A stretch of 44,319 nt of DNA, taken from sequence record PP514360, one strand, 5' to 3'. This DNA is from Escherichia phage HK1. A model generated the notes under the pieces. That model was not told the DNA's origin, searched no databases, and saw nothing but the letters and a program-made list of their open reading frames with translations. Numbering within the stretch: the first letter of the stretch is position 1; the number at the start of each line of letters is the position of its first letter. A program made the position numbers and the translations under genes. Positions 8,640 through 32,312 of this stretch are shown here, one piece after another.

Positions 8640-9419
8640 TTAACGACGGCGACGTTTACGTGGTGCTTCGTCTTCGTCGTCTTCGTCCTCATCTTCATCG
8701 TCGCGTGGCTTACGACGTTTACGAGGTTTTTCATCTTCGTCGTCGTCATCGTGGCGCTTGGACTTTTTGGACTTGCGCGGCTTGTCGTCTTCGTCGTCGT
8801 CATCACGACGTTTTGACTTTTTGGACTTGCGCGGGCTTTCATCTTCGTCATCGTTGTCCAGGTCTTCGTCGGAGCAAGAAGAACCGCCACCACCGAAGGA
8901 TTCACCATCATCGCGGAAGCGCAGACCCAGCAAGCCAGCCCCGAGTCCCTTGCCGTTGGTATTGTTCCACGCCCAAATATCAATGGACACGTTGCAATAA
9001 CAACCGGAGTAAATCTCCCGTCCTTCGATCTCGTCGCCTTCTACGGTCAGACCTTGTTCCGTCTGCTTCTCGCCGAGTGACGTTTGAATGTTTGGTTGTT
9101 TGAACGATTTGGTGTTGATATACAACATGCCTTCGAATTCTTCGGTTACTTCGTCGCGCTCATCACCGTCGCGAACAGCGCACTCCTTAGAATCCTGGGC
9201 GTAGTGGCGGTCCATCCACTTATCGGCGTTCTTCTCGGATTTCAGCTTGTCGGTGAGCACTGCGCGCGCTGCCGCTTCCACTTTGTCCACCTGCGGATCT
9301 TCTTTATCCAGAAGAATCACGGCACGGTATGCCGGTTTCTGACCATCTTTTTTAGGGGTATCGCGCTCCCAAATATTAAGGAAACATACGCGCACATTTT
9401 TCAGGTTGACTTTAGCCAT
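8640..9419 (-). CDS. putative ssDNA-binding protein (DUF2815/T7 gp2.5-like) with repetitive acidic/basic C-terminal tail
   Basis: N-terminus MAKVNLKNVRVCFLNIWE resembles the DUF2815 family that commonly sits between DUF2800 and PolA; C-terminus is a tandem repeat (DDDDEDxKPRKSKKSKR). ATG at 9419 (track start at 9440 is GTG). Confidence 0.55.
   Translation of the reverse strand: MAKVNLKNVRVCFLNIWERDTPKKDGQKPAYRAVILLDKEDPQVDKVEAAARAVLTDKLKSEKNADKWMDRHYAQDSKECAVRDGDERDEVTEEFEGMLYINTKSFKQPNIQTSLGEKQTEQGLTVEGDEIEGREIYSGCYCNVSIDIWAWNNTNGKGLGAGLLGLRFRDDGESFGGGGSSCSDEDLDNDDEDESPRKSKKSKRRDDDDEDDKPRKSKKSKRHDDDDEDEKPRKRRKPRDDEDEDEDDEDEAPRKRRRR
8695..8860. repeat. intragenic tandem repeat (~57-bp unit) encoding alternating acidic/basic tail of the SSB-like protein
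   Basis: TTTTTGGACTTGCGCGG...TCGTCGTCGTCATC appears in tandem; encodes DDDDEDxKPRKSKKSKR units. Confidence 0.7.
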
Positions 9420-11660: not shown

Positions 11661-12176
11661 TTAATCTTCCAGTTCGAAATAGGTTTCGACGATTTCTTTT
11701 AGCTCTTTGTGGAAGTCTTCGACGTCGTCATCTTCCAGCTTGGCGATTGATTTGATCTCGAACGATTCCAGCAGGTCGTCGAATTCGTCGTTCGCGTCGT
11801 CGTCATCACCACCCGCAATAATCGCGGCATACTGTTTGATTTCGTCGCGCATCTCCGCCAGCGGATCGGCATCTTTCTTACCTTTGCCTTTCGCCGGTGC
11901 TTTCTTAGACTTAGCCGGTTTTTCGTCTTCGGCATCGTCGTCGTCATCTTCTACGACTTCTTTTTTAGCCTTACCTTTCGCCGGTGCTTTTTTAGATTTA
12001 GCCGGTTTTTCGTCTTCAGCTTCATCGTCGTCATCTTCGACAACTTCTTTTTTGGCCTTAGACGGCTTCTTGTCTTCCTGCTTACCAACGGCAGCGCCAA
12101 CGGTTTCATAATGCTTTGCAATGGTTTCCAGTGCTACTACGCCGCGAGTGATCAGGTTTACGATTTGCTCAAACAT
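11661..12176 (-). CDS. acidic protein with tandem Lys-rich/Asp-Glu-rich repeats (histone-H1-like KAPAKGK units)
   Basis: Start at MFEQIVNL (ATG 12176) with GGAGA SD; internal 29-aa unit KKEVVEDDDDEAEDEKPAKSKKAPAKGKA repeated twice; strongly acidic C-terminus. The track ORF start at 12356 runs through the promoter region and is unlikely. Confidence 0.55.
   Translation of the reverse strand: MFEQIVNLITRGVVALETIAKHYETVGAAVGKQEDKKPSKAKKEVVEDDDDEAEDEKPAKSKKAPAKGKAKKEVVEDDDDDAEDEKPAKSKKAPAKGKGKKDADPLAEMRDEIKQYAAIIAGGDDDDANDEFDDLLESFEIKSIAKLEDDDVEDFHKELKEIVETYFELED
11881..12057. repeat. intragenic tandem repeat (~88-bp unit, two copies) in the acidic repeat protein gene
   Basis: CCTTTCGCCGGTGCTTT(C/T)TTAGA(C/T)TTAGCCGGTTTTTCGTCTTC...TCGTCGTCATCTTC twice in tandem; resembles the SSB-gene repeat unit at nucleotide level. 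Confidence 0.7.
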
Positions 12177-12917: not shown

Positions 12918-15182
12918 ATGAGCTTAATTAAATTCGCTGTAACAAAACCCGCTAAAAAAGGCGAAAAAGCCAGGGCGGAAAACTTCCAGATGACCACCGA
13001 TGAATTTTTCGAATTTATCAAAGATGCGAAAGAAATATCCTCGGTGCATATCAACAAAACGGAAGATAAAGCCGAGTATGCACGCCGCAAGCGTAAGGCC
13101 GACGGCATCGTGGCGTATACCAGTGACGGATTGCGTCGCAAGACCAGTGCGGTGGACCGCTCGATCCTGTTCTTTGATATTGACCGCACCGACACTCGCA
13201 CCTTGCGCCGCTGCCGTAAGGCTTTCATCGACGCGGGTCTGGAACACGTATTCCACACAACCACCGGCGACCGCCACCCACTGAAAGGTGGAACGCGTTG
13301 CGCTCGCTTCCTGGTGCTCACTGACAAGCCTGTACCGGCGGAAGACCTGGGCCGTGTCCAGTATGCGCTATTACACCAACTTGGTCTGTCAGATGTGGAC
13401 TTCGACGATTGCACGAAAGACACAAACCGCCTGATGTACCTACCACACCAGCAGTCTGTAATAAAGTGTCACTACGGCAAACGTGCCCGCGTCCGTCGTC
13501 TGCTTCGCCTGGCGGATACGCTTGGCGTGGAGAAGGAAGAAGTACGCCGCGAACTGACCCAGGGCGACGACGCAGTGGCAGACGGCATTCTTGACTGGTG
13601 CTTCCAGGCAGGATTCGAGGAGTTATCTTCCGGTCGCGGTTATGAAGTGCCGTGCCCGAACGAACATCTGCACAGCGGCGAAGGGTCGACGGCTATCATG
13701 GTTAAGGATGGCGAGATCCGTTTCAAGTGTATGCACACCGGCAACGAGTGTTGCTCCGAACTGAATAGACACCAGCACCTGGCGCTGCGTCTTATCGGGA
13801 TCCCGGACCACCTGAACGTCGAGCCACACAATATGTCCCGTAAGCAAATAGCCGCCATCCTTCCGGGGCTGGACGACGAGGAAGTCGAATCCTTATATGA
13901 ACATATTGTTGATGCGGTTGGCGACGGCGAAGAATATGGCGTGTGCACCGATGCGGATCTGGATAATGAGCCGGTTGCGCTGTTCAGTAAGCACGACCCG
14001 ATCATCGAGGGGTTGATTAACTTTAAATCAACCTGGTATATGGCTGGTGAGTCGAATATCGGTAAGTCTTTCTATGTGCTGGGCCAAATGGGCGCGGTTG
14101 CCGCGGGTATCCCGTTTGGCGGTGCGAAGGTCGTCCAGTCTCATTGCTTCTATTTCGACGCGGAAGGCGGCGAAGCCTCCAACCAGCGCAAAGAAGCATT
14201 GCAGATTAAATACGAGCACGACCTGGACAAGCTGCACATTATCGACCTGCAGTCTCGCGGCTGGGATATCACCAGCAAGTCCGGTTTGCGCGAAGTTATC
14301 AGCTTTATCAACCGCACCGCTAACGGCGAACCTGTTGGCCTGGTGGCGTTCGACTCACTCAACCAGACTGTTGCTCTGCGGTCCGCCGATGCTAAACCGT
14401 TTGACGAGAACAACGCCAGCGATATGGGTGAAGTGGTCAAAGCGCTGAAGGCCATTGCGGAAAACACAGGTGGCAGTGCGGGCGTCATCCACCACCCGGC
14501 GAAGGGTGCAAACGGCAGCAGAACCCCACGCGGATCCGGCGCACTGCATGGCGCTGTCGATTCAGCTTTCTTCCTGGAACAGCCGGACGACAACCAGCCG
14601 GGACAACTTAACCTGTATCACGAAAAGTCACGTAACGGCATCAAGCAAGCGCCGCGTGGCTTCGTCCTGCTCAAGTGCAAGGTGGCGGTAGATCTCCGCA
14701 AGTCAGAAGCGTTCGCGTCGCACCAGTCCACCAGCACCGGGCCAGACTTCGGTGACGTAGTTGCTGGTTGGGACGTCAAACCAATTGCGTCCACCCCGCG
14801 CGACGAGACTTTATACCTCGTACCGGTCGCCCTGGCACCGTTCGCTATAGAACAGGCGAAGGCCGCAGGAAAAGCCGCAGTTAAGGAAGAGAACACCGCC
14901 GGACCGCGCACCGAAAAAGAAAAGGTACTTTACGCGGCCCTGGAAAAACTGATGGAAGATAACCCGGACCATACTGGTTTCAGTAAATCGGCAATCGTCC
15001 GCCAGGCAGGACTCGCGAAGGGGGGCACTTCGACGAAGGCAATCGACGATATGGTTGAGCGCGGCGTGATCGGTTTCTATACAGATCCGCACACCGGGGC
15101 CATATATGGGTCGTCGAATTTAGTCATCAAATCGGATATCCCCATCACGCTTTCGGCGACCGATGACGACCTGAACGATTAA
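12918..15182 (+). CDS. DNA primase-helicase (N-terminal primase-like domain, C-terminal RecA-like ATPase)
   Basis: 754 aa; LFFDIDRTD (DxD, primase-polymerase-like), Cys/His cluster CPNEHLH...CMHTGNEC, Walker A GESNIGKS and AFDSLNQ in a RecA-like C-terminal half. Confidence 0.75.
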   Translation: MSLIKFAVTKPAKKGEKARAENFQMTTDEFFEFIKDAKEISSVHINKTEDKAEYARRKRKADGIVAYTSDGLRRKTSAVDRSILFFDIDRTDTRTLRRCRKAFIDAGLEHVFHTTTGDRHPLKGGTRCARFLVLTDKPVPAEDLGRVQYALLHQLGLSDVDFDDCTKDTNRLMYLPHQQSVIKCHYGKRARVRRLLRLADTLGVEKEEVRRELTQGDDAVADGILDWCFQAGFEELSSGRGYEVPCPNEHLHSGEGSTAIMVKDGEIRFKCMHTGNECCSELNRHQHLALRLIGIPDHLNVEPHNMSRKQIAAILPGLDDEEVESLYEHIVDAVGDGEEYGVCTDADLDNEPVALFSKHDPIIEGLINFKSTWYMAGESNIGKSFYVLGQMGAVAAGIPFGGAKVVQSHCFYFDAEGGEASNQRKEALQIKYEHDLDKLHIIDLQSRGWDITSKSGLREVISFINRTANGEPVGLVAFDSLNQTVALRSADAKPFDENNASDMGEVVKALKAIAENTGGSAGVIHHPAKGANGSRTPRGSGALHGAVDSAFFLEQPDDNQPGQLNLYHEKSRNGIKQAPRGFVLLKCKVAVDLRKSEAFASHQSTSTGPDFGDVVAGWDVKPIASTPRDETLYLVPVALAPFAIEQAKAAGKAAVKEENTAGPRTEKEKVLYAALEKLMEDNPDHTGFSKSAIVRQAGLAKGGTSTKAIDDMVERGVIGFYTDPHTGAIYGSSNLVIKSDIPITLSATDDDLND

Positions 15183-15275
15183 ATTTTGCGCGCATTGGTT
15201 GCCATTTTGAGCGTTTTTATCTGGGCGCATTGGTTGCCGTGTAGTGTGAATATAATGCATAGTTATGCAATAAAA

Positions 15276-15450
15276 CTGCATAAAACAAACGGGACAAAAA
15301 GCGGGACAAACAGGAGGCGGGACAAAGCGGGACAGCACCCCGTCCCACCCACGGATGACGCGGCCTGGCGAGGAGCGGGACAGCGGGACAGCACCCCAGT
15401 CTTTCAGACTAGACGGGGGGTCTGTCACCCCCCTCGTCTGAGACTGCATA
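15276..15450. repeat. copy A of duplicated non-coding module (GCGGGACA array plus GC-rich hairpin)
   Basis: CTGCATAAAACAAAC followed by four direct GGGACA repeats, GGGAC-agcacccc-GTCCC, two more GCGGGACA, then hairpin CAGTCTTTCAGACTAGACGGGGGG-tctgtca-CCCCCCTCGTCTGAGACTG. Near-identical to 32076-32250. Confidence 0.8.
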
Positions 15451-15605
15451 AAATCCGGGATTGCATATTGCACGGCAGCAGGGTGCGTATTGCGGTCGTC
15501 GACGAACTAGGCAACCAATGCGAGTTGCGGAATGGTGGGCGAAAAATGCAGTTTGCAGTAACAGCAGATAGCGATCGACTTTTTCATGCGCATGATTAAT
15601 ATTGG

Positions 15606-15662: not shown

Positions 15663-15989
15663 ATGAAAAAATTAATCTGGAATTACGCAATGGCTATGGC
15701 GAAGGCACAAGAAGCGGCGGAGTTCGCCGGTGAGGGGGTGGAAGCAGTAGAAAGACTATCGGCAGCGTGGGCCGTTGTGCGGGTGATGCAGCGGGCCATC
15801 GCCGTTATGCTTGAGCGCCGCTTCGACACGATGGAAGAGATCCAGCCACTGGCGAACGCCATCCAGGACTACGCGCTTGCATTCTCCCGTGAGCGCCTGG
15901 CGTATCGCTTCGGGATCGGTGAGACGGCAGTGACAAACGTCGCCCGGATTAAAGCACAGCGCGAACTATTTGCCCAGCTTGCGAAATAA
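15663..15989 (+). CDS. hypothetical protein (108 aa)
   Basis: ORF with AAGAGGA SD; preceded by promoter TTGCAT-17-TAGATT (15606-15634). Confidence 0.55.
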   Translation: MKKLIWNYAMAMAKAQEAAEFAGEGVEAVERLSAAWAVVRVMQRAIAVMLERRFDTMEEIQPLANAIQDYALAFSRERLAYRFGIGETAVTNVARIKAQRELFAQLAK

Positions 15990-18924: not shown

Positions 18925-20067
18925 ATGCACCCGCAAACTAAAATTACCGATGAGCAATTGATCGCAGAAATTCAGGCAGGGACTACGGTTAAAGAGATTG
19001 CGAAGAAATACGGGATTGCCCTGCGCAATGTCTATATGCGGAAGGCCCGCCTGTCGAAAAAGGGAATTGGTCACGGCAATGATGCCGTGATCCGTAAGCG
19101 CGTTGCCGATGGTTTTGGGGTTAAGCGCGTATCGGCCCTGGTGCGCGGAAATGGCGAAGAGGTCATGTCGTGGGTCATCACTGAGCAGGACAAGGAGCGC
19201 CAACTCGAAGCTATGCGCGCTGTTGTCGAGGGTATGAACAGCGAAATAACACCGGCAGCGCCAGTAAACGCTCCGCCAGTACCGATCCAGGCGCTCGACT
19301 TGCTTAACCTGTACACGGTGTCCGACTTCCACCTGGGCATGTTGGCATGGGGAGAGGAGACTGGCGAAGACTGGGATATGGCGATCGCCGAAGACCTGTT
19401 CTACCGCTGGTTTGTCGAAGCCTTCGCACGCGCACCAGACGCAGGCACTGCCGTGATCAATATCCTCGGCGATATGGCGCACTTTGATAGCCTCGACGCC
19501 GTCACTCCCGCCAGCGGTCACGTATTGGACGCCGACACCAGATACCAGAAGTTGGTCCGCTACATGATTCGTATGGTGCGCAACGTCGTCGAACTTGCCC
19601 TGCAAAAACACCACAAAGTCAAACTGCTAATCGTCCAGGGGAATCATGATGAGTCGGGTATGATCTGGCTGGCTGAGATGTTCAATACTCTGTACGAGAA
19701 CGAGCCGCGCGTCGATGTGGATACGTCCCCGGACGTTTACAAAATGGTGCAGCACGGAAAGACCACGCTATTCTTCCACCACGGGCACAAAGCGCGATTC
19801 GATGTTATCGAGCAGGTTATGATCGCTAAATTCAGACAGGCGTTCGGGGCGAGCGAATACAGCTACGCGCACGTAGGCCATTTGCACCACCAGAAGATTG
19901 TTGAATCCCGCAACATGATTGTTGAACAGCACAGGACGCTCGCAGCGAAAGACGCCTACGCCAGTCGTGGCGGTTGGATGTCAGGTCGCAGCGCCAACGT
20001 CATTACCTACAGCGCCAACTACGGCGAAGTAGCGCGCTTAACCATTAGCCCGGAAATGTTGAAGTAA
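18925..20067 (+). CDS. HTH domain fused to calcineurin-like metallophosphoesterase (phosphatase or Mre11/SbcD-like nuclease)
   Basis: N-terminal TVKEIAKKYGIALRNVY (HTH); C-terminal SDFHLG, ILGDMAHFD, QGNHDE, HHGHK, GHLHH matching the metallophosphoesterase motif series in order. Confidence 0.7.
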   Translation: MHPQTKITDEQLIAEIQAGTTVKEIAKKYGIALRNVYMRKARLSKKGIGHGNDAVIRKRVADGFGVKRVSALVRGNGEEVMSWVITEQDKERQLEAMRAVVEGMNSEITPAAPVNAPPVPIQALDLLNLYTVSDFHLGMLAWGEETGEDWDMAIAEDLFYRWFVEAFARAPDAGTAVINILGDMAHFDSLDAVTPASGHVLDADTRYQKLVRYMIRMVRNVVELALQKHHKVKLLIVQGNHDESGMIWLAEMFNTLYENEPRVDVDTSPDVYKMVQHGKTTLFFHHGHKARFDVIEQVMIAKFRQAFGASEYSYAHVGHLHHQKIVESRNMIVEQHRTLAAKDAYASRGGWMSGRSANVITYSANYGEVARLTISPEMLK

Positions 20068-20197
20068 CGGCAACCAGTACCCCTCCCAGCCTGCCGATTT
20101 GGTGGGCTTTTTTGTGCCTGTTATAATCCGCCTTAGATGGCAGGGCCGTCTCCTATGTCGCCGATGGTCGGCGCATATGAACAAAAGGGCTTATATC

Positions 20198-20749
20198 ATG
20201 GCAGAAATCAAAGTTAAGGGCCGACGCGCCAAACTGGACGGACGAGTAGCAGTAACCCCGCGCCGTAAACCAGGCGAGCAAACCGAGCACACCAATCTTG
20301 GACCTGAAATCGAGTACGGAAAACGCCGTAAAGGCGGCAAATGTGGACGCCCTACTGACTACAGATCCGTTTACTGCGATCAGCTTCGCCGCTATTTTGC
20401 CGACGCCGACGCCTGGCAGGTCAACTACTCCGATAAAGGCGCTGCGCAAGTAATCCCCCGCAACAAAATGCCAACCTTCGGCCGATTTGCCGCTGAAATC
20501 GGCGTGGGCGTAGCTTGCCTGTATCGCTGGGCGCGTGCGCATGAGGAGTTTGCCGAGGCGATGGCTGACGCTATGGAATTGCAGAAAACCTTCCTGATGG
20601 AAGCTGGCGGCGTGACCATCGCGGCGGGCTTCGCTACATTCCTGCTTAAAGCAAACCACGGCGTCCGCGACGATATACCGCTGGATGACGACGAAGATGA
20701 TAACGGCGACGTCGTTGTGGAGCCTACCGGCAAAGGCCAGGGTGAATAA
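20198..20749 (+). CDS. terminase small subunit
   Basis: Position directly upstream of and overlapping the large terminase; basic N-terminus, central helix-rich region (FGRFAAEIGVGVACLYRWARAHEEF), acidic C-terminus. Start at MAEIK (AAGGG SD); alternative ATG at 20177. Confidence 0.6.
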   Translation: MAEIKVKGRRAKLDGRVAVTPRRKPGEQTEHTNLGPEIEYGKRRKGGKCGRPTDYRSVYCDQLRRYFADADAWQVNYSDKGAAQVIPRNKMPTFGRFAAEIGVGVACLYRWARAHEEFAEAMADAMELQKTFLMEAGGVTIAAGFATFLLKANHGVRDDIPLDDDEDDNGDVVVEPTGKGQGE

Positions 20750-22134
20750 TGCGTAACTATGCGGCGGAACACCGCGCCCTTGAACGAGCGATCGCAAAGC
20801 GTAACCGACCGCCACGCCCGACACGCGTTGCGCAGGCTGTGCGTCTTTACCAGCCAGATTGCTTGCCGCACCAGGTTGAACTACTGCGTGACACGAAGAC
20901 TAAAATCCTCGGCCTGTGTTCCGGCTTCGGCGGTGGCAAGTCATGGGTTGCCGCACGTAAGGTCATCCAGCTTCTGACACTTAACCCTGGTTATGACGGC
21001 ATCGTGACCGAACCGACTATCCCACTCCTGGTTAAAATCATGTATCCGGAACTGGAGAAGGCATTCGACGAGGCTGGCTTCCGGTGGAAGTTCAATAAGC
21101 AGGACAAGATTTACAACGTGCTGGTGAAAGGCAAATGGACTCGCGTTATCTGTGAGTCAATGGAGAACTATACCCGCCTGATCGGTATCAACGCCGCGTG
21201 GATTGTTGCCGACGAGTTCGACACCACGAAACAAGACGTCGCGCTGGCGGCATATCACAAATTGCTCGGTCGTCTGCGTGCTGGCTTCGTCCGCCAGTTC
21301 GTCATCGTGTCAACGCCGGAAGGCTTCCGGGCGATGTATCAAATTTTCGAGGTGGAGAAGGATAGCCAGAAACGCTTGATCCGGGCGAAGACCACGGACA
21401 ACCACCATTTACCGGCGGACTTTATCGACACGCTGCGTAGTCAATACCCAGCTAACCTGATCGACGCGTACCTGAACGGCCTGTTTGTTAACCTTACGTC
21501 GGGCGCGGTGTACAAGATGTTCAACCGCGAGGAGAACGCCAGCACCGAAGAAGTGCAGCCGGACGACACGCTGATTATCGGTATGGACTTTAACGTCACG
21601 AAAATGGCGGCGGTCGTATACGTCAGACGGCAGCGAGTAACCGAGAACAAGGAGTTCCGCGACGAGATTCACGCGGTGGATGAATTTGTGGACCTGTTTG
21701 ACACCCCGGCTATGATTGAGGCGATCGAGGAGCGCTACCCCGATCATTGCGCTGCCGGTCGTGTCGTCGTTTACCCGGATAGCAGCGGCAAGTCTCGCAA
21801 GACTGTCAACGCGTCGTCGTCCGATATCGCACAACTGGAAGATGCTGGCTTCGAGGTGGAGTATGACAGCGTTAACCCACCGGTGAAAGACCGATTGATC
21901 GCGATGAATACGATGATGTGCAACTCGAATGGTGTGCGCCAGTATTTTGTCAACCTGGATAAATGCCCTACACTAGCGAAATGTCTGGAACAGCAGGTTT
22001 ACGACCTGAAGAAAGGCGAGCCGGATAAAACTGCCGGTGTGGACCACATGAATGACGCGGCGGGATACCCTATTGCGCACTTGTTCCCTGTGATTCGTCC
22101 GATCGCCGTTGTTCCAACTGTAGACTTCTACTAA
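20749..22134 (+). CDS. terminase large subunit
   Basis: 461 aa; Walker A-like GFGGGKS, Walker B IVADEFD, C-terminal nuclease-like GMDFNVTK; start overlaps the small-subunit stop (TAATG). Confidence 0.85.
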   Translation: MRNYAAEHRALERAIAKRNRPPRPTRVAQAVRLYQPDCLPHQVELLRDTKTKILGLCSGFGGGKSWVAARKVIQLLTLNPGYDGIVTEPTIPLLVKIMYPELEKAFDEAGFRWKFNKQDKIYNVLVKGKWTRVICESMENYTRLIGINAAWIVADEFDTTKQDVALAAYHKLLGRLRAGFVRQFVIVSTPEGFRAMYQIFEVEKDSQKRLIRAKTTDNHHLPADFIDTLRSQYPANLIDAYLNGLFVNLTSGAVYKMFNREENASTEEVQPDDTLIIGMDFNVTKMAAVVYVRRQRVTENKEFRDEIHAVDEFVDLFDTPAMIEAIEERYPDHCAAGRVVVYPDSSGKSRKTVNASSSDIAQLEDAGFEVEYDSVNPPVKDRLIAMNTMMCNSNGVRQYFVNLDKCPTLAKCLEQQVYDLKKGEPDKTAGVDHMNDAAGYPIAHLFPVIRPIAVVPTVDFY

Positions 22135-31237: not shown

Positions 31238-31252
31238 TTGGAGAATACTACA

Positions 31253-31615
31253 ATGGCTAAAGCACCACTCTTTACACTTGACCCTAAGCCTACTTTTAAG
31301 CTGCCGATTGAGATCCCGCGCCCAGGCGAAAACGAACCGGGCAAAATGACGTTTACCGTGCGCCACCGTCCGATCGACGAATTTTCGCAGACCATGCAGG
31401 ACACGGAGCGCAAGCTGTCGGAATACGACGACAACGACCAGGAAGGCTTTAACGTTATGGTCGAGGCCATCATGCACGTCGCTGAAGGCTGGAATCTGCC
31501 AGATGAATTTAACGCGGAGAACGTCCGCCGCCTGGTGGTTAACTACCCTCGCGCGTTCGGTGTGTTCCACACGTCGTACTATCTCGAACTAATGGGACTG
31601 CGTGAAAAAAACTAA
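31253..31615 (+). CDS. tail assembly chaperone (lambda G-like)
   Basis: 120 aa ORF directly upstream of the tape measure; GGAGAA SD; ends with slippery A_AAA_AAC immediately before its stop. Confidence 0.65.
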   Translation: MAKAPLFTLDPKPTFKLPIEIPRPGENEPGKMTFTVRHRPIDEFSQTMQDTERKLSEYDDNDQEGFNVMVEAIMHVAEGWNLPDEFNAENVRRLVVNYPRAFGVFHTSYYLELMGLREKN

Positions 31616-31929
31616 TTGAGGCGGCGCGACGCTTTTATGGCCCGCCGCCACCCTCCGAAGATTTAGCAGCAAGTTTATGGGGTGCGTCCCCCGAAGATGT
31701 TTGTCCGCCTGTTGCACTATGGCCCGACAACGCGAAGATAGTCGCAGTCTTCACCGATTGCGCCACTCAATGGCGCACAGGATTCGGTGGCGCATACGGC
31801 ATCGACTATGGCGTGCTGGAGTGGCTATTCAAGATGCACGGCATCGAAAACGCGCAACGTGCGTTTAAAGATATCAAGCTAATGGAACGCGTTGCGCTGG
31901 ACGAAATGGCGCGACAGAACCCCGCATAA
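31253..31929 (+). CDS. tail assembly chaperone frameshift product (lambda GT-like, -1 frameshift at 31606-31612)
   Basis: The -1 frame is open from the slippery heptamer to the TAA at 31927-31929 (about 105 extra codons, checked codon by codon). Confidence 0.55.
31606..31612 (+). other. programmed -1 ribosomal frameshift slippery heptamer (A_AAA_AAC)
   Basis: In the G frame the codons are GAA AAA AAC TAA; the heptamer A AAA AAC fits the X_XXY_YYZ pattern and the -1 frame is open to 31929. Confidence 0.55.
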
Positions 31930-31933
31930 CGAA

Positions 31934-31967
31934 GCGGGACAAAACGGGACGTCCCGTTTTGTCCCGC
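31934..31967. promoter_or_regulatory. perfect 34-bp palindrome built from GCGGGACA units
   Basis: GCGGGACAAAACGGGAC|GTCCCGTTTTGTCCCGC, five nt after the GT stop codon; candidate operator or hairpin. Confidence 0.55.
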
Positions 31968-32075
31968 CGCCATTAAACCGCATATATACTCACTTTCATT
32001 GCATAAACTAAAAGCGGGACGGGGTGCTGTCCCGATCTGTCCCACCCCTTAAAAGTGAATAGCTATGCGGTTTTT

Positions 32076-32250
32076 CTGCATAAAACAAACGGGACAGAAA
32101 GCGGGACAGAATGAGGCGGGACAAAGCGGGACAGCACCCCGTCCCCGTCAGTGCTGCCGCGGGTTTTAGCCGATCGGGACAGGCGGGACAAAGCCCAGTC
32201 TTTCAGACTAGACGGGGGTCATCGGCCCCCCTCGTCTGAGACTGAATAAG
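32076..32250. repeat. copy B of duplicated non-coding module (GCGGGACA array plus GC-rich hairpin)
   Basis: Same order of elements as copy A with a few substitutions; hairpin arms conserved while the loop differs (tcatcgg versus tctgtca). Confidence 0.8.
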
Positions 32251-32312
32251 GTTTGTTTTAAATTCGCTGATACAATGACCGACGGCAACTGCATAAAAAG
32301 GGGGACTGCATA

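Follow-up and report, generated by a model that had tools for sequence, protein, structure and literature searches.

Duplicated CGGGACA modules beside the primase-helicase gene and in the tail operon of a Dhillonvirus: candidate origin-type iteron arrays

Escherichia phage HK1 is a Dhillonvirus, an HK578/SO-1-like siphophage of E. coli, and its sequence record (PP514360; 44,319 nt, analysed whole and referred to here as the window) contains a non-coding module of ~195 bp twice, at 15256-15451 (module A) and 32056-32249 (module B). Module A starts ~75 bp past the stop codon (15182) of the gene for a 754-aa primase-helicase, an arrangement of array downstream of helicase that is found at A but not at copy B. 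The features of the two regions are as follows.

12918-15182, plus strand: primase-helicase gene, 754 aa (Pfam AAA_25, E 2.3e-19; PHROG 3228, 'replicative helicase-primase'), with a primase-like N-terminal part, a Zn motif, a RepA-like AAA_25 helicase at aa 357-531, a disordered linker at aa 645-660 and then a predicted C-terminal winged helix
14913-15140, plus strand: coding region of the winged-helix domain (about aa 666-740), which is proposed to bind the iterons
15240-15289, no strand assigned: tract rich in A+T on the 5' edge of module A (in a composition profile 15240-15299 has 30% G+C, the genome ~54%)
15256-15269: 14-bp palindrome TGCATAGTTATGCA, inside this A+T-rich tract
15276-15283: CTGCATAA, also inside the tract (motif statistics; conservation in 33 copies)
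15290-15346, plus strand: first iteron block of module A, with CGGGACA in direct orientation at 15290, 15302, 15318 and 15328 (units 1-4)
15342-15346: inverted GTCCC, forming a dyad with unit 4 (GGGAC-N8-GTCCC, 15329-15346)
15347-15375: spacer of 29 nt, which differs between A and B and is kept within each type across genomes (33-copy alignment)
15376-15390, plus strand: second iteron block of module A, a direct pair of CGGGACA units that start at 15376 and 15384
15397-15446, plus strand: G+C-rich hairpin of module A, outer stem CAGTCT/AGACTG, inner stem AGACGGGGGG/CCCCCCTCGTCT
15421-15427: loop of this hairpin, 7 nt, variable
15444-15451: further copy of CTGCATAA, after the hairpin
31930-32312: gap B, which separates the tail assembly chaperone genes from the tape measure gene (32313)
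31934-31967, no strand assigned: perfect 34-bp palindrome with halves GCGGGACAAAACGGGAC and GTCCCGTTTTGTCCCGC, two direct and two inverted units
32016-32046, minus strand: inverted partial array, 90% complementary to 32115-32145 (repeat search)
32056-32249, plus strand: module B, the full second copy, with the palindrome-like TGAATAGCTATGCG, and CTGCATAA at 32076
32090, 32102, 32117 and 32127, then a dyad, then 32175 and 32184: units of module B
32196-32244: hairpin of module B

Self-comparison of the window aligned the two regions well beyond chance in three collinear blocks, all at an offset of ~16,800 bp: 15256-15308 with 32056-32108 (53 nt, 83% identical), 15314-15419 with 32113-32218 (106 nt, 78% ungapped) and 15416-15451 with 32214-32249 (36 nt, 83% identical). 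An earlier note on this DNA had described such a duplication, with one copy after the primase-helicase gene and the other before the tape measure gene, and had read its anatomy as four direct units, a GGGAC-N8-GTCCC dyad, two more units and a G+C-rich hairpin, all of which proved right. The bounds it gave, 15276-15450 and 32076-32250, located both copies but fell ~20 bp short on the 5' side; in a MAFFT alignment of both gaps the similarity ends at the module edges, which sets the extent at 15256-15451 and 32056-32249. Gap B starts at 31930 and not, as had been proposed, at 31869. The TGCATAGTTATGCA palindrome, the 34-bp palindrome, the inverted partial array and the primase-helicase as a candidate binder were absent from that account.

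The window contains 22 copies of the CGGGACA unit, where 6.29 +/- 2.32 are expected; none of 100 shuffles reached that number. Fifteen of the 22 copies fall within the two gaps: modules A and B each hold six on the plus strand, and gap B holds nine in all (six plus, three minus). CGGGACA therefore forms what is typical of an iteron origin, a non-coding cluster of short direct and inverted repeats above chance frequency. Both modules are also bracketed by CTGCATAA, with eight copies in the window against 1.2 expected. The A+T-rich tract of module A, which flanks that module on one side only, is a candidate DNA-unwinding region or site for a second protein. A GC-skew profile of the genome was confounded by the switch in gene orientation near 12.4 kb.

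Each of the two gaps is matched by 158 phage records. In the GenBank record of Sodalis phage SO-1 both are annotated as repeat regions, 'A' and 'B', mutually similar and containing 'direct, inverted and palindromic repeat sequences'. Our literature search returned no paper on this element, queries with GGGACA and CGGGACA being uninformative, and the Dhillonvirus literature that it found nowhere describes a replication origin. The kind of element is ordinary, the phage group is unstudied, and the repeat is already flagged in one public record.

Conservation was assessed in an alignment of 33 distinct module copies from ~17 Dhillonvirus genomes. In 15 genomes both regions were retrieved, and every one of these carried A as well as B. 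Within units 1-4, 26 of 28 columns were invariant, compared with six of 17 in the spacers between units; in the hairpin the stems had 38 invariant columns of 43 and the loop none of seven, with the conservation of the 5' stem arm biased by the search pattern that served to retrieve the copies. With the copy-specific spacer excluded, mean identity was 0.872 between A and B within a genome, 0.865 between A copies of different genomes, 0.885 between B copies of different genomes, and 0.843 between A and B of different genomes. The duplication is old, yet A and B are no more diverged from one another than orthologues are, which indicates either shared constraint or exchange between the copies. The module is duplicated, the duplication is conserved across these genomes, and its units are selectively conserved.

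Gap B contains more than a second copy of the module. The 34-bp palindrome starts 4 nt past the stop codon of the T part of the tail chaperone, and the inverted partial array and module B together bracket a relatively A+T-rich region of ~68 bp in the composition profile. Units in inverted orientation enclose 32047-32089; the tracts at 31980-32019 and 32240-32279 are rich in A+T. The T part itself (gp16-like; 31238-31929 region) ends at 31929 in a frame for which no start is listed upstream of 31813, which would fit a -1 frameshift (G/GT-type) out of the ORF at 31238-31615; in HK578 it is annotated as an ORF of its own. A number of public records or contigs start or end inside gap B, at positions equivalent to ~32140 (Kente), ~32207 (UAE_MI-01), ~32239 (Maverick), ~32041 (IMG/VR 3300045988_009799) and probably ~31946 (PNS1), and the ends of the Edwardsiella phage eiAU-183 record fall in its equivalent gap. 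Gap B was in one piece, with at least 80% covered, in only 151 of the 158 records. These breaks reflect either assembly failure induced by repeats and hairpins or a hint of physical DNA ends; in practice they are a warning that the repeats and hairpins of the modules coincide with assembly breaks in several public genomes.

A second motif, ATTGGTTGC, is distributed differently. It has 14 exact copies, and 25 when one mismatch is allowed, against 12.5 expected, and these are mostly paired and intergenic (1240, 2902/2919(-), 5849/5861(-), 9475/9491, 12380, 15194/15229, 15511(-), 15601/15632, 16187(-), 18731/18754(-), 26349/26363(-) and 42445(-)). The pair at 15601/15632 overlaps a promoter-like TTGCAT-N17-TAGATT before the gene at 15663, and ATTGGTTGC is likely a phage operator or promoter motif. 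Related motifs (GCAACCAAC, GTTGGCAGC and GCGGCCAAC) fill the same gaps in eiAU and in two diverged relatives, L010 and L011. Elsewhere in the window, tandem direct repeats of 54 nt and 87 nt, rich in GTC/TTC, lie inside minus-strand genes at 8656-8854 and 11867-12040, where they encode acidic, lysine-rich repeats.

The protein encoded next to module A carries DxD and Zn motifs, as read from its translation, and an AF2 model of it had a pLDDT of 78.9. According to this model the C-terminus folds as a winged helix, a feature that goes with an iteron origin, and this predicted domain is the best candidate for the binder of the units. Homology searches of the domain gave little: a search of PDB sequences with the whole primase-helicase returned noise only, and a Pfam search with the C-terminal domain found no match. 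A profile of that domain compared with PDB sequences matched only the TALE-like repeats of BurrH (summed E 7e-35); each BurrH repeat scores only 5-12 bits, and we therefore regard this as motif resemblance and not homology. The stretch concerned, helix 2, turn and helix 3 (14985-15100, aa ~690-727; homologues P0015-P0120), has the consensus GFSxAEIVKIAGxGGxRRxAL and resembles the Burkholderia BurrH repeat RGFSQADIVKIAGNxGGAQAL, ~20 repeats of which contributed to the sum; the likeness may reflect convergence or a remote relationship. Beyond the winged helix the protein ends in an acidic DDDLND tail (15168-15182), and in an alignment of 40 homologues the pattern D-x-D-L-x-D is conserved, with D751 invariant and L752 nearly so. 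Acidic C-terminal tails of this sort mediate contacts with polymerase or SSB in T7 gp4 and gp2.5. One of the binders suggested in the earlier note, an 'HTH-phosphoesterase' (18925-20067), matches a DNA repair exonuclease family.

Arrays of short repeats were also found beside the helicase genes of more diverged phages, where the repeated unit changes (percentages are protein identities).

L009, 68%: CGGGACA after the gene, with the same hairpin
Salmonella phage SE1, 44%: GGGGGAGA, with four exact matches (0.68 expected) that all fall in the gap, accompanied by a dyad and a hairpin
L010 and L042, 46%: GGGGATC dyads after the helicase gene
L011 and L043, 48%: TCGCAA, 9-10 copies after the helicase gene
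L044, 48%: TTCCGCACA, five copies after the helicase gene

The two large gaps recur in Edwardsiella phage eiAU-183 (Eiauvirus), where they share a 52-nt core (88%, E 4e-14) with a different, G+C-rich unit, TCGCCCCG/CGCCCGCCCC; the eiAU-183 hairpin before the tape measure gene resembles the Dhillonvirus hairpin. Counting eiAU, six different units occur in six lineage groups, a lineage specificity of the iterons that is seen by correlation only. The start of helix 3 is similar where a unit is shared (TSTKAI/TNTTAI, KRRPAI, HYGKTL/NYKKVL) and differs in lineages with other units (DRYKIL, RYSDAL). Unit and protein both vary with phylogeny, so that their co-variation does not single out the primase-helicase, and the small HTH gene upstream likewise differs by lineage. 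SE1 has the helicase-side array only, with no copy at its tail operon, and a second copy is therefore not a general requirement. Kagunavirus and Jerseyvirus genomes encode partial homologues of the helicase with no such array downstream, and have a reverse cI/DicA-like gene there instead. Searches with the tail chaperone, aimed at a copy B in the 68%-identity clade (L009/L039), found relatives that were too close or T1-like phages.

Searching IMG/VR by the CGGGACA-array pattern alone returned at least 120 stretches on many unrelated contigs, and among the matches listed a common layout was three to six direct units, a G+C-clamped palindrome and inverted units. A helicase-core profile identified 46 ORFs in the listed array loci, and in 43 of these 46 the array lay between -205 and +332 nt from the 3' end of the ORF, mostly within 60 nt of it. 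Pfam AAA_25 was confirmed in the four ORFs that we checked, one of which also had a Prim-Pol domain, and no other neighbouring gene family was shared by more than seven of the 43 listed helicase loci. Arrays are thus tied by position to genes for RepA-like helicases, and their units change between lineages. No single conserved domain that reads GGGACA emerged: the Dhillonvirus tail and the C-termini of the unrelated CGGGACA-associated helicases, which among themselves share the motif WRxxFY...KKKAFxRA...VWxV, gave an hhalign probability of 3.4% and no HMM matches. With no detectable homology between these winged-helix tails, the binder is not identified by homology.

Further listed arrays sit inside genes for DnaD-like or O-like replication initiators. 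On three IMG/VR contigs of unrelated phages, the CGGGACA units (L136 2147-2289, L102 1221-1371 and L090 5775-5905) are within DnaD/O-like coding sequence, where they encode G-T-rich linkers such as GTDSGTG and SGTAAGQQRDK; they recall the iterons of the lambda origin, which lie inside gene O. On five contigs of ~40-45 kb from IMG/VR sample 3300045988 that look like integrated elements (L209, L232, L211, L228 and L186), pairs of the form CGGGACA(R)AAACGGGACA adjoin the 3' ends of tRNA genes and are possibly recombination or arm-type sites. Two-unit pairs are heterogeneous in this way, and only arrays of at least three units and the helicase-linked set were therefore used as evidence.

The layout at module A has described counterparts, which the earlier note, stating that it could not place the module in a described system, did not name: it is that of the SaPI Rep and P4 alpha origins. 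In SaPIs, Rep is a helicase that loads itself and reads, with a C-terminal winged helix, 6-12 iterons of five or six nucleotides directly downstream of rep; these iterons occur in both orientations around an A+T-rich centre, their sequence is element-specific, and in PriRep5 the initiator helicase is fused to a primase (PMC9371898). Module A resembles this Rep-ori arrangement, also seen in PICIs, in its position directly 3' of a helicase gene, in the predicted winged-helix C-terminus of the encoded protein and in its short iterons. The proteins are of different families, however, SaPI Rep belonging to an AAA+ MCM-like clade and the phage protein having a RecA fold of the RepA-like AAA_25 type, which places it outside the SaPI Rep family. 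SaPIs are satellites, whereas HK1 is a lytic phage of 44 kb that encodes a DNA polymerase; the SaPI A+T tract is central, whereas that of module A is at one edge; and the second full copy 16.8 kb away and the conserved G+C hairpin are unlike SaPI. In the plasmid pRN1 the origin lies downstream of the gene for ORF904, a prim-pol/helicase/winged-helix protein, and needs an intact stem-loop, and the authors of that study noted similar arrangements in bacteriophages (PMC4234260). Unlike the phage, pRN1 is an archaeal plasmid; its helicase is of the SF3 type, it lacks iterons, and its stem-loop measures ~100 nt (PMC4234260).

Precedents for a second, distant site come from satellite phage P4 and Bacillus phage SPP1. 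The alpha protein of P4 combines primase, helicase and a C-terminal winged-helix origin-binding domain in one polypeptide and binds short octamer iterons, and its two separated cis sites, ori and crr, carry the same iteron (TGTTCACC) ~4.5 kb apart. This is reportedly the subject of Ziegelin & Lanka 1995 and Yeo et al. 2002, both cited in PMC4234260. The likeness to HK1 is in having one primase/helicase/winged-helix protein and two separated sites, with copy B comparable to crr; P4 alpha has an SF3 helicase and an alpha-type origin-binding domain, and the phage protein does not belong to its family. SPP1 likewise has two sites, oriL and oriR, which share repeats bound by the initiator G38P, one located among replication genes (oriL, inside gene 38) and the other far off in the late genes, so that copy B is comparable to oriR; the SPP1 initiator is a separate origin-binding protein that works with a helicase loader and a DnaB-type helicase. 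The oriV of the IncQ plasmid RSF1010 is served by a hexameric helicase of the RepA family (AAA_25) and an AEP-like primase, and has iterons together with the hairpins ssiA and ssiB, which are primase entry sites. The phage modules share with it an AAA_25 helicase, a primase, and iterons plus hairpins; RSF1010 divides these activities among three separate proteins, RepA, RepB' and RepC, with 20-mer iterons bound by RepC and not by the helicase, compared with one protein here.

Given the match in layout to the SaPI Rep-ori and to pRN1, with the precedents of P4 and SPP1, we read both modules as probably being origin-type iteron arrays for the phage's own primase-helicase. Their units are present in both orientations and as perfect palindromes, and adjoin A+T-rich tracts. 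The predicted winged helix at the C-terminus of the 754-aa protein would bind the CGGGACA units, concentrating several protomers on the array, and the hexameric RepA-like helicase could then load itself at the adjoining A+T-rich tract, the G+C hairpin, or both. The A+T tracts (30-35% G+C), the hairpin, or both would serve as the site of melting or priming, after which the primase part would start DNA synthesis. Copy B, 16.8 kb away in the tail operon, may be a second origin or an auxiliary cis site for the same protein. We infer the winged helix as binder, the start of replication at the modules, and the roles of copy B and the hairpin from this layout.

The arrays could instead be sites for a phage transcription regulator, or a transcribed RNA element of the processive antitermination or RNA-protein type, that controls the downstream gene blocks. 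The earlier note preferred this to an iteron origin because the copies stand at the heads of gene blocks, and both copies are indeed oriented with transcription and ahead of gene blocks, copy B inside the late operon. The promoter-like TTGCAT-N17-TAGATT lies ~155 bp downstream of A (a site picked out by eye and absent from the promoter scan's list), a TATAAT at 15251-15256 is conserved among A copies, the gap of the GGGAC/GTCCC dyad stays at 8-9 nt in both sequence variants, compatible with an RNA hairpin, and the hairpin has conserved stems with a variable loop. Those stems hardly vary, however, and for that reason contain no compensatory changes; Rfam covariance models at gathering score matched nothing in the whole window, where a tRNA scan was also empty, and RNA folding of the modules gave weak z-scores, -1.7 and -2.5. 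Units that are inverted or form perfect palindromes point to recognition of duplex DNA. In the 43 of 46 listed unrelated loci the arrays follow the 3' ends of helicase genes and not operon starts, some arrays of other phages sit within the coding sequence of initiators, the tail operon of SE1 lacks a copy, and the motif that is paired in intergenic regions throughout the HK1 genome is ATTGGTTGC, not GGGACA. We consider transcriptional or RNA control unlikely, and the helicase-gene tie, the two orientations and palindromes, and the pairing of ATTGGTTGC favour iterons instead.

Module B, or both modules, might alternatively be a pac or other DNA-processing site, with repeats bound by the small terminase around the cut. 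The pac site of P1 contains hexamer repeats, and P1 and SPP1 pac both serve as precedents. The records and contigs that begin or end in gap B, the ends of the eiAU-183 record in the equivalent gap and the number of records with gap B unbroken would suit such a site, as would headful packaging of Opt-212, determined by PhageTerm (PMC9022532). The break positions vary, however, assemblies commonly break at a two-copy repeat that has strong hairpins, and a different terminus, cos with ATCTTAAGGG, has been reported for EE09 (PMC10673088). Copy A and the 43 listed unrelated arrays are tied to helicase and not terminase genes, and the HK1 terminase genes are ~11 kb away (20099-22134), all of which makes a processing site a quite improbable explanation. 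We give still less credence to the hairpins and palindromes being plain terminators of the primase-helicase and tail-chaperone units, with repeats that have no separate function. The HK578 record labels the site equivalent to the 31934-31967 palindrome a rho-independent terminator, PTXU06 also annotates a terminator in gap B, and the palindrome does closely follow a stop codon; but a plus-strand terminator scan called none at module A, module B or 31934-31967, and the G+C stem-loops, palindrome and module hairpin alike, are followed on that strand by the tails CTGCATAAAATCC and CGCCATTAAACC and not by the T-run of an intrinsic terminator. Termination in gap B would also block expression of the tape measure gene, and six invariant direct units, the change of unit between lineages and the same units in unrelated phages would be left unexplained.

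If the modules are origin-type iteron arrays, a more far-reaching scenario can be drawn, which we offer as speculation that is doubtful as a whole. Dhillonviruses and Eiauviruses would need two distant copies of one origin module, both bound by one self-loading primase-helicase of the RepA type (SF4), and copy B, from its place after the tail chaperone genes and ahead of the tape measure gene, would link replication with late events as well; it might, for example, be the start point of concatemer synthesis or headful packaging, or a gate on tape measure expression. CGGGACA arrays at the 3' ends of AAA_25 helicase genes would then mark a large class of phage origins that has not been described, in which self-loading helicases with unrelated winged-helix tails recognise one and the same 7-bp site by convergence.

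Two precise candidate origins and a candidate initiator domain make the initiation of replication in Dhillonviruses directly testable. The group is commonly isolated on E. coli and has members in the BASEL collection, and the candidate origins bear on phage engineering as well as on interference by plasmids ("PER"-type resistance). For annotation, a rule follows: in a phage with a RepA-like helicase-primase, an array of 6-8-bp repeats with a palindrome should be sought directly 3' of the gene, a rule that could mark the origins of many metagenomic phages.
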